Of a stretch of 64,000 nucleotides of DNA, positions 33,369 to 35,174 are shown one piece after another. A program made the translations under genes and the position numbers. The stretch's first letter is position 1. Every line of letters begins with the position of its first letter. The notes beneath the pieces are model-generated. The model saw nothing but the letters and a program-made list of their open reading frames with translations, had not been told where the DNA came from and did not search any database. The DNA comes from Bdellovibrionales bacterium (GTDB lineage: Bacteria > Bdellovibrionota > Bdellovibrionia > Bdellovibrionales > JAUICD01), in the NCBI GenBank assembly GCA_965197425.1, contig CBDANC010000013.1:128001-192000 (forward strand). Reading direction: 5' to 3'.

Positions 33369-34055
33369 TCAATGAAATTTTATAACTTCAACCAGTTTAA
33401 GATGACATTTTTTAAATTTTTTATTGCTACCACATGAACAAATATCATTACGCCCAATTCTCCTACGCATTGTGTTTTTTATTGTGAAATTTTTCTTTAG
33501 TTCTGTTAATACCTCTTTAAATTCATCGGGATGCATATTCCTATAGAGCTTGGAATGACGGACAAATTGTGTGCTATCTGAAATAATTTCATCTATAAGA
33601 CCTTGCACCCCATGTTCCAAATCTCCAAATGGCCATTTGCTAAATTTGTTGTAATAGCTTAAGCCGTATAAAAAAGATATTATGAGCTGAGAAATGAAAT
33701 CTGTTGCTGGAGTTTCACTGTTTCTAAGTTCCTCAGCTTTATCAAAAGCAATTATTCTAGAACATAAGCATAATTCAGGGGGATCGGTTTTATAATTAGC
33801 GTGCAGAGACATTATATTTATATTTCTTTCCTCTGCTAATTTTTTAATTCTACCACCAACCTCTTTAACTACAGGTAAAGGTTCACACCTGTTAAAATCA
33901 ATATTTATTTCATAAGCATCTTCTATTAATTGACGACTAAGCTTCGCTTTAAAATTTAAAGTTCCACATAAAATGTTTTTGTTTGGCTCAAAAGTTAATC
34001 CTGGTTGCTCTTTTAAAAGGAATTTTTTATCTTCTTCCGAAACCCAACAAGACAT
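33369..34055 (-). CDS. Prokaryotic E2 (UBC)-like protein with C-terminal SEC-C motif
   Basis: YEINIDF...LPVVKE...LHANYKTDPPELCLC resembles the UBC H-x-N...CL catalytic loop; WPFGDLEHG; GRNDICSCGSNKKFKKCH SEC-C. Confidence 0.7.
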   Translation of the reverse strand: MSCWVSEEDKKFLLKEQPGLTFEPNKNILCGTLNFKAKLSRQLIEDAYEINIDFNRCEPLPVVKEVGGRIKKLAEERNINIMSLHANYKTDPPELCLCSRIIAFDKAEELRNSETPATDFISQLIISFLYGLSYYNKFSKWPFGDLEHGVQGLIDEIISDSTQFVRHSKLYRNMHPDEFKEVLTELKKNFTIKNTMRRRIGRNDICSCGSNKKFKKCHLKLVEVIKFH

Positions 34056-34061
34056 TTTGTT

Positions 34062-35174
34062 TTATACACTCCAAGGAGGGGTAGTAGCAATTGATCCTGT
34101 ATCTTTACCACCTTTTAAAATATTAAAAGTTTTTGCAGACCCTACATTTAAAGTTCCTAAATAGTACAAATTGTACTTACTTATACTTCCAGATTCTTTT
34201 GATAGAAACTCTTCTTTATACAAACTATCTTCTACGTAAATATCTACTTTGAAAGTGTAACACTCAAACAATATATCACCAGCAGAGTTCTGTTTGATTG
34301 TGTTATAGCCGTTGTAGTAATTTAGATGTTCTGAAGGTGCTTCACCAATAACAATAACTTTAGGTTTCATTCGATTTAACCACAGCTCAGGTATTTTTCC
34401 GCTGTCTCTACCATGATGAGGTGCAAATAAGATATCAACAGAGTCAATGTTTCTATCCTTAAAGTTTTTTTCTTTATTCAATAAGTCCACTAGACTAATT
34501 GGTGTTTCAATTTTTATTTTGTGCATAAAATCTGATTCTAAATCACCCATAAATACCATGTTTATTCCGTTTTCTGAGTACATAATAATTGGGGATATAT
34601 TGTTTGGACTTAAATCATGTTTTGCTGATTCTAAAGCCTGTTTGTAATGTATATTATCAACTACAGGCCAAAGGATTTTAAAACCTAATCTAGATAGAAC
34701 GGCATATCTATCAAGTGAAGTTTTATTTTTACAATTGTTGTCTCTAAAACTTGCCAAAAGCCTATCAGTCGGTGATTGAACGTTATCTTGATTTTTGCCA
34801 TTTATAAGACTAACGAAAAGAGAGTTTTCACAACCTCTGTACAAATAAGAAGCTTTATTAGAATCCTTTAATTCACAATATTTATCAAAATCTTTTGTAC
34901 CATCAACCTTCTTAGTTTCATTCTCGACAACATAAAAATCAGTAATATTTAGTTCATTGTCTAAAATACTCAAACCTTTGATATGATCATTGTCTGGATG
35001 AGTGGATATAAATCTAATATTTCCTTGATTTGACATATTAACTATTTCGTCAAGATTTTTTTTGCCATGGTCACTGTCGTCCAAACAACAATCTATAACA
35101 GTTAGATCTCCAGAATTATGTTTTATATAAAACATATCACCATTACCTACAGAAAAAGACTTTATAATACTCAT
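34062..35174 (-). CDS. MBL-fold (ComEC/Rec2-like) metallohydrolase 2
   Basis: SVGNGD, IDC, STHPDNDH, MGDLE, APHHGRDSG motifs. Confidence 0.85.
   Translation of the reverse strand: MSIIKSFSVGNGDMFYIKHNSGDLTVIDCCLDDSDHGKKNLDEIVNMSNQGNIRFISTHPDNDHIKGLSILDNELNITDFYVVENETKKVDGTKDFDKYCELKDSNKASYLYRGCENSLFVSLINGKNQDNVQSPTDRLLASFRDNNCKNKTSLDRYAVLSRLGFKILWPVVDNIHYKQALESAKHDLSPNNISPIIMYSENGINMVFMGDLESDFMHKIKIETPISLVDLLNKEKNFKDRNIDSVDILFAPHHGRDSGKIPELWLNRMKPKVIVIGEAPSEHLNYYNGYNTIKQNSAGDILFECYTFKVDIYVEDSLYKEEFLSKESGSISKYNLYYLGTLNVGSAKTFNILKGGKDTGSIATTPPWSV

Follow-up and report, generated by a model that had tools for sequence, protein, structure and literature searches.

MBL2, a metallo-hydrolase encoded in the 64,000-nucleotide stretch of Bdellovibrionales DNA analysed here (the window), ends in a tail which is, as judged by sequence comparison, homologous to the C-terminal tail of ThsB-type TIR proteins encoded upstream of one clade of stand-alone E2 proteins; the E2 gene that follows MBL2 encodes a member of this clade. 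Since the tail matches those of TIRs located beside the same kind of E2, this E2 may well clip and attach MBL2, and the chances appear even that it uses the tail to process MBL2 and to capture it covalently without E1, ATP or JAB. The tail and the lone E2 look like a portable cassette, independent of E1 and JAB, which serves enzymes other than cyclases: tail and E2 co-occur on TIRs, the E2 retains its His/Cys/His set, and its clade has no cyclase-linked member.

The operon and its proteins

Four abutting genes lie on the minus strand, in the order MBL1, a 154-residue hydrophobic gene, MBL2 and the 228-residue E2 gene (Table 1), and a divergent capH/capP-like pair is placed upstream of them. 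The stop codon of MBL2 is separated from the start of the E2 gene by a 6 nt gap. A Logan contig that spans positions 32615–38500 shows 0 differences to the window and a second one covers 33732–34729 (both runs come from one sample, possibly the source sample); the junction between MBL2 and E2 is therefore not an assembly error.

Table 1. Features of the MBL2–E2 operon and of the adjacent regulator pair (positions in the window)
Feature	Position	Strand	Support
MBL1, second ComEC-like metallo-hydrolase, first gene of the operon	35622..36605	-	PADLOC PDLC04675 E 7e-34
154-aa hydrophobic protein, predicted membrane; possible effector	35171..35635	-	hydrophobicity; orthologue in G219
MBL2, ComEC-like metallo-hydrolase, PADLOC PDC-M48B family, 370 aa	34062..35174	-	PDLC04673 E 7.5e-104 over 1-344
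MBL2 C-terminal tail, residues 345-370 (26 residues), predicted E2-recognition tail	34065..34142	-	0/119 homologues; TIR-tail model match
Tail block 1, F-x-I-x-K-G (350-355), predicted docking strand and hinge; Gly355 = second candidate cut site	34110..34127	-	hydrophobic-x-I-x-[KT]-G in 15/15 TIR tails
Tail block 2, P-W-S-V (367-370), predicted processing site S369/V370	34065..34076	-	P-W in 15/15 TIR tails
Stand-alone E2 (E2-only CBASS type) with C-terminal SEC-C Zn motif, 228 aa	33369..34055	-	PADLOC PDLC00872 E 2.8e-25 over 7-226; Pfam SEC-C 202-219
E2 catalytic set His85, Cys96, His148	33612..33803	-	only invariant columns in 140 sequences
SEC-C motif (C206, C208, C217, H218)	33399..33452	-	PF02810 E 7.6e-07; at least 90% conserved in 140 E2s
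Divergent HTH and Zn-peptidase pair, capH/capP-like regulator	36690..37548	+	PADLOC capH E 6.4e-05, capP E 1.2e-34; Pfam HTH, Peptidase_M78

The first-pass annotation of this DNA had recognised a stand-alone E2 and had seen no E1 or JAB gene in the window. The assignment of the E2 to the E2-only CBASS type stands (PADLOC PDLC00872, with His85, Cys96 and His148 intact and no adjacent cyclase; no gene of the operon matches a cyclase model), and the absence of E1 and JAB extends to the whole 99%-complete genome, in which ThiF/E1 (PF00899) and Prok-JAB (PF14464) have 0 matches. From their order and spacing in an alignment of 140 E2s (586 relatives were found, the best 150 taken and 140 kept by length), we infer that His85, Cys96 and His148 are the equivalents of H87, C101 and H152, which serve the S. 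marcescens E2 as its protease-ligase residues (bioRxiv 10.1101/2022.05.25.493364). The acceptor lysine of the latter, K159, has no equivalent, the residue seven positions after His148 being Asp155.

The AlphaFold2 model of the E2 has a pLDDT of 92.7. Its best named match in the ESM Atlas is E2-CBASS (0.88, to be taken as a lead only). A PDB sequence search with the E2 profile returned SEC-C matches and one weak UBC match (E 0.086), and a word-index search found no relative of the E2, the single hit among 301 candidates being the E2 itself.

In MBL2, the metal ligands H59, D63, H64, D211, H253 and H254 are invariant in the family alignment, and the top Foldseek match is the MBL domain of ComEC (9ic4, E 2.6e-11). 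Based on this ComEC-like fold, our guess is that the substrate could be DNA or a nucleotide signal. MBL2 also has two private insertions (at about residues 121–149 and 222–238), modelled with low confidence, and it departs from 8 near-invariant columns of the family (the homologues have a median of 1 and a maximum of 6), which could be a sign of decay. Among the families shown by a repeat search, no duplication accounts for the tail or the insertions. GC and GC3 fail to separate the MBL2 core from the E2, and the 78 nt of the tail do not suffice for such a comparison.

The 154-residue membrane protein has no Pfam match and no PADLOC match at E 0.01, and its ESM Atlas neighbours (score 0.95) are unnamed. 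Its orthologue in G219 (E 2.4e-48) is encoded upstream of an MBL2 gene that has no E2.

Relatives of MBL1 are found close to MBL2-family genes in several other loci. In five unrelated loci devoid of E2 (L026, L054, L061, L063 and L079), MBL1-like and MBL2-like genes neighbour each other, which suggests that such pairs form a two-MBL system of their own. Compared with 5 relatives, MBL1 of the window has a C-terminal extension of ~19 residues (35625–35700, minus strand); this extension was not counted as an E2 tail since the P-W motif is missing.

Several other features surround the operon. Directly downstream of the E2 are a PDC-M19A/B candidate defence pair (31118–32817, minus strand) and a DUF2188/PDC-S16 gene (32911–33198, plus strand). 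Two paralogous genes of small membrane proteins (30137–30573 and 37739–38169, with 71–92% DNA identity in blocks) flank a 7.6-kb defence cluster like direct repeats, and possibly mark insertion or recombination boundaries.

The C-terminal tail of MBL2 and its counterparts

MBL2 ends in ...NILKGGKDTGSIATTPPWSV. The fold of the family ends at residue 344 (G-T-L-x-x), and the homologues (the best 119 of 4624) stop there or shortly after: 2 of these 119 align to residues 351–360 and none to residues 361–368. Residues 345–370 are therefore an appendage. The tail joins MBL2 5 residues past the natural end of the family with both of its blocks preserved, and it continues the reading frame of an MBL domain that is complete, the gene occupying the slot of the tailed TIR. 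The pLDDT of residues 353–370 is under 50.

The first-pass annotation had described an appended, low-complexity tail directly upstream of the E2 gene. Its position is as described; the label is incomplete, since the tail contains two conserved blocks common to TIR tails. The comparison of homologous tails which the annotation had called for went against conservation within the MBL2 family. The tail is present in 0 of the same best 119 homologues, and no E2 is found beside MBL2-family genes in 81 loci (80 metagenomic ones, the best of 534, and one genome locus; 53 of the 81 have at least 800 nt of downstream DNA) or in the 9 viral loci. Matches to the E2 profile in two MBL2 loci (L020 and L032) cover the SEC-C end only and were dropped.

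The counterparts of the tail occur on TIRs. The gene contexts of E2s were collected from overlapping sets of 401 (phylum), 384 (order), 5 (family) and 120 (another class) genomes, and from 3 of 11 plasmid matches. An E2 match is present in 9 of the 384 genomes of the order, and five of these are close to the window E2. In G401, G616, G658 and G659, a ThsB-type TIR gene lies directly upstream of the E2 gene and is itself preceded by a SLATT gene; a fifth TIR–E2 case (L134), from another phylum, came from a TIR-based scan. In all five informative genomes, the gene immediately before the closest E2 encodes a tailed TIR (SLATT-TIR-E2). In the 83%-complete genome G653, the E2 of the clade is at the start of a contig, and no TIR or MBL2 was found there. 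A PDC-M19B-like gene also adjoins this E2.

In a tree of 38 E2s, the window E2 groups with all five TIR-linked E2s, the E2 of G653 and three context-less proteins, with a support of 99/98. No cyclase-linked E2 falls inside this clade, and the branching order within it has no resolution. The window E2 is 39–44% identical to the TIR-linked E2s, and the MBL2 tail is 38–43% identical to five TIR tails; the latter share 37–57% identity among themselves, except for one close pair (75%).

At their C-terminus, these TIRs are extended by a tail with the pattern hydrophobic-x-I-x-[KT]-G, 9–11 residues, x-x-P-W-x and 1–2 residues. Within the best 120 of 279 TIR homologues, 14 have the tail and 106 are short, without a P-W ending. 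In 42 TIR loci, an E2 adjoins each of the three tailed TIRs, and none of the 39 others (4 of which have little or no downstream DNA) has an E2 match; the three positives are not independent since two come from related genomes. A two-block model built from 15 TIR tails gives the end of MBL2 29.1 bits, which ranks it first of the 1611 C-termini of the genome (the next best has 7.4), and none of 20,000 shuffles reaches this score. A plain HMM of the TIR tails also puts the MBL2 tail first, although weakly (E 0.066). The residue after P-W is S in nine of the 15 TIR tails, N in three, C in two and K in one; it is Ser in MBL2. Constraint at the DNA level may account for part of the conservation, since in 4 of 6 aligned junctions the W-S codons also supply a GGAG core of the ribosome-binding site of the E2 gene.

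The TIR-SLATT-TIR(tail)-E2 layout of G401, a genome of the same genus, is mirrored by the enzyme-TM-enzyme(tail)-E2 layout of the window. In the G401 operon, the TIR that comes first (L115:10576-11256) also has a P-W-R-S end, like the cyclase tails in L102–L104, so that a single E2 may serve two TIRs in this genome. In G616, a type III-like CBASS (L128:9973-13118; cyclase, HORMA-like, AAA ATPase and NucC-like genes, assigned by inspection) abuts the SLATT-TIR-E2 operon.

Cyclases encoded upstream of a separate E2-SEC-C end in P-[W/Y/H] followed by 2–8 residues in 18 of 18 loci (14 of the cyclases were confirmed by PADLOC, and the type of the other four was assigned from motif and likeness). 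Three plasmid loci also fit this ending, and cyclase–E2 fusions have P-Y-A at the junction (3/3). The element common to the MBL2/TIR tails and the cyclase tails is therefore the terminal P-aromatic motif; 24 of the 1611 ORFs of the genome have such an ending. The fusions found in L178, L179 and L180 (CD-NTase-E2-SEC-C, about 529 residues) are candidates for self-processing. Another E2-SEC-C (L182:1141-2037) is extended at its N-terminus by unrelated sequence, and no cyclase is encoded within 1.5 kb of it.

According to the accessible text of two reports (bioRxiv 10.1101/2022.05.25.493364; PMC12948482), the S. marcescens E2 cuts and conjugates its cyclase at Y405-G406-E407, and the GG located about nine residues upstream is not the conjugation site; this E2 requires Gly, tolerates Ala and accepts neither Val nor Leu. 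In MBL2, W368-S369-V370 falls in the register of Y405-G406-E407, with Ser at the conjugated position instead of Gly or Ala. Cyclases of the E2-SEC-C class also vary at this position. Since the register matches the S. marcescens cut site, and the upstream GG is not used there, a cut between S369 and V370 would be roughly twice as probable as one at the GG of MBL2. The suggestion of the first-pass annotation that a tail glycine is the reactive end is thus only partly maintained: the GG is probably not used, the terminal P-aromatic motif being what cyclase tails have in common, and Gly355, which is conserved in 15/15 TIR tails, is kept as a second, less likely candidate. The chemistry of the P-W-S end may also differ from the Gly rule of S. 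marcescens, since Ser, not Gly, follows P-W.

Proposed mechanism and alternative readings

By analogy with the E2-CBASS of S. marcescens, the E2 would bind the tail of MBL2, and Cys96, assisted by His85, would cut near the end of the tail, most likely after Ser369 and less likely after Gly355. The energy of the bond would be kept as a thioester on the E2, and MBL2 would then be passed to a lysine, which could belong to the E2, to a second MBL2 molecule or to a protein of the host or phage. MBL2, a predicted DNase or phosphodiesterase, might be held off until infection, or switched on by chaining. Such a control is suggested by the model system, in which conjugation to the E2 inhibits the cyclase and chaining activates it (as stated in the accessible text of bioRxiv 10.1101/2022.05.25.493364 and PMC12948482).

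The MBL1-TM-MBL2(tail)-E2 operon would be an anti-phage system whose regulator was acquired from a type VII-like Thoeris operon. All other known clade members are partnered with a TIR, so that parsimony, on an unrooted tree, makes it probable that the MBL module came in place of a TIR module. The locus would have a regulation similar to that of E2-CBASS without being a CBASS. A broader proposal, which we hold to be less likely than not, is that a tail of ~22 residues and a lone E2-SEC-C form a self-contained, plug-in switch for ATP-free conjugation, with which three unrelated immune enzymes (CD-NTase, TIR and MBL nuclease) have been fitted; ligation would proceed via a C-terminus other than glycine (Ser, Asn or Cys after Pro-Trp), and the locus would be a working MBL-based anti-phage system controlled in this way. 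Against the capture of MBL2 by the E2 stand the existence of a single example, the absence of Gly after P-W and that of a K159 equivalent, as well as the 8 column departures of MBL2 and the GGAG motif within the W-S codons.

Alternatively, the tail could be left over from a recombination in which MBL1-TM-MBL2 took the place of SLATT-TIR in a Thoeris-E2 operon, and ~22 codons from the end of the TIR gene happened to stay in frame; clipping would be possible, without selection for it. This reading, which we hold to be unlikely, is consistent with the fact that the MBL-tail-E2 arrangement is found in this genome only, among the loci examined, and that a TM-MBL2 pair with neither E2 nor tail exists in G219. 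The private insertions and 8 column departures of MBL2 are also in its favor, as is the possibility that the DNA of the tail holds the ribosome-binding site of the E2. In addition, such operons appear to erode in this genome, judging from the broken E2 of its other CBASS. However, the two tail blocks are preserved with their usual spacing and came without any TIR helix; nothing is missing from the MBL domain, which retains its metal ligands. The E2 is intact and only 39–44% identical to its nearest TIR-linked kin, and the tail has diverged no more than the TIR tails have from one another, although a recent swap is still compatible with this.

The broken E2 belongs to a pair formed by a CapV-like phospholipase and a CD-NTase, about 7–9 kb before the start of the window (G000:C13:119022-121050, L081): fragments matching residues 10–35 and 91–113 of the E2 of G402 are what remains of it, with stops and a deletion. 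Because the pair retains E2 fragments only, the window E2 could instead work in trans on this orphan CD-NTase (CapV and cyclase, G000:C13:119022-120925), which is the sole SMODS match in the genome and lies outside the window, 40 kb from the E2. The orphan cyclase ends in K-P-F-A and 7 residues, followed by the E2 fragments; an intact three-gene version exists in G402, and besides the window E2 no second intact E2 of the E2-only CBASS type turned up in the genome. Yet this E2 falls within the TIR-linked clade, apart from the E2s of that type of cyclase, and a tail of the matching clade lies directly beside it. E2-CBASS pairs also need specific extended interfaces, according to the accessible part of PMC12948482. 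Action in trans thus seems improbable.

Finally, there is a very slim chance that MBL2 and the E2 are a gated nuclease–protease pair, in which the private insertions block the active site of MBL2 until the E2, recruited by the tail and acting as a cysteine protease only, cuts them and releases a DNase, as in HamM/Avs1a; an MBL upstream of a protease-like gene, with two low-confidence insertions, does resemble the architecture described in the accessible part of PMC12799240, and there are weak PADLOC matches to the RTasMBL, LmuA and Avs1a profiles, but the GD and HHG motifs flank the second insertion, while in Avs1a the extra sequence precedes both (as located from motif anchors in one Avs1a, the alignment of the first insertion being unreliable), and the insertions have no homologues that would show a conserved cut site.

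Relation to known systems

In the literature found, as far as its accessible text goes, E1-independent conjugation by a lone E2 is characterised for one cyclase system only, and no lone E2-SEC-C serving a TIR or an MBL was found, although the supplementary tables of a TIR preprint (bioRxiv 10.64898/2025.12.03.692087) may list such operons. If the capture of MBL2 by the E2 is real, a tail that moves with the E2 across cyclases, TIRs and MBLs would define a minimal recognition element, and the mechanism would also apply to signalling of the Thoeris type and perhaps to a nuclease. The missing terminal Gly would point to a different substrate rule. If the tail–E2 pair is portable, it could provide a small ATP-free protein ligation tag.

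Among known families, MBL2 matches PDC-M48B of PADLOC over its whole core, and members of the PDC-M48 family are usually encoded beside a small hydrophobic gene, as here. However, the family has no tail, no insertions and no E2, and the TM gene of the window matches no PADLOC model. The gated pairs HamM, Avs1a and CanC, as described in the accessible part of PMC12799240, likewise have a protease-type gene preceded by a ComEC-like MBL that carries two insertions, but their partner is a trypsin or a caspase, neither of which was found in the operon, instead of an E2, and the positions of the insertions have no clear match.

Type VII Thoeris (TIR and SLATT, with cADPR) resembles the operons of the relatives, which include a SLATT and a ThsB-type TIR; the window operon has neither. 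Tailed TIRs have been described beside Cap2/Cap3 modules (bioRxiv 10.64898/2025.12.03.692087); from the accessible part of this preprint, these Thoeris systems have a conserved tail glycine and use Cap2 and Cap3, not a lone E2-SEC-C. Similarly, MBL proteins are stated to be substrates of modules made of an E2-E1 fusion and a JAB, as are those of Pycsar (PMC11601596, accessible text). The type II MBL and Pycsar systems share with the window an MBL enzyme as the putative substrate of a ubiquitin-like module, here with a homologous tail, but they depend on a fused E2-E1 and a JAB, neither of which was found in the genome of the window.

The closest characterised system is that of S. marcescens (CdnG-E2; accessible text of bioRxiv 10.1101/2022.05.25.493364 and PMC12948482). 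It differs from the window operon in that the latter has no cyclase, the tailed protein being an MBL here and a TIR in the relatives; the tail of MBL2 is P-W-S-x, without a terminal Gly, and the window E2 has about 70 extra residues that include the SEC-C motif and lacks a K159 equivalent. Both systems, however, have a lone E2 with a His/Cys/His set and neither E1 nor JAB, encoded directly after a tailed protein that ends in an aromatic residue, a small residue and any residue.
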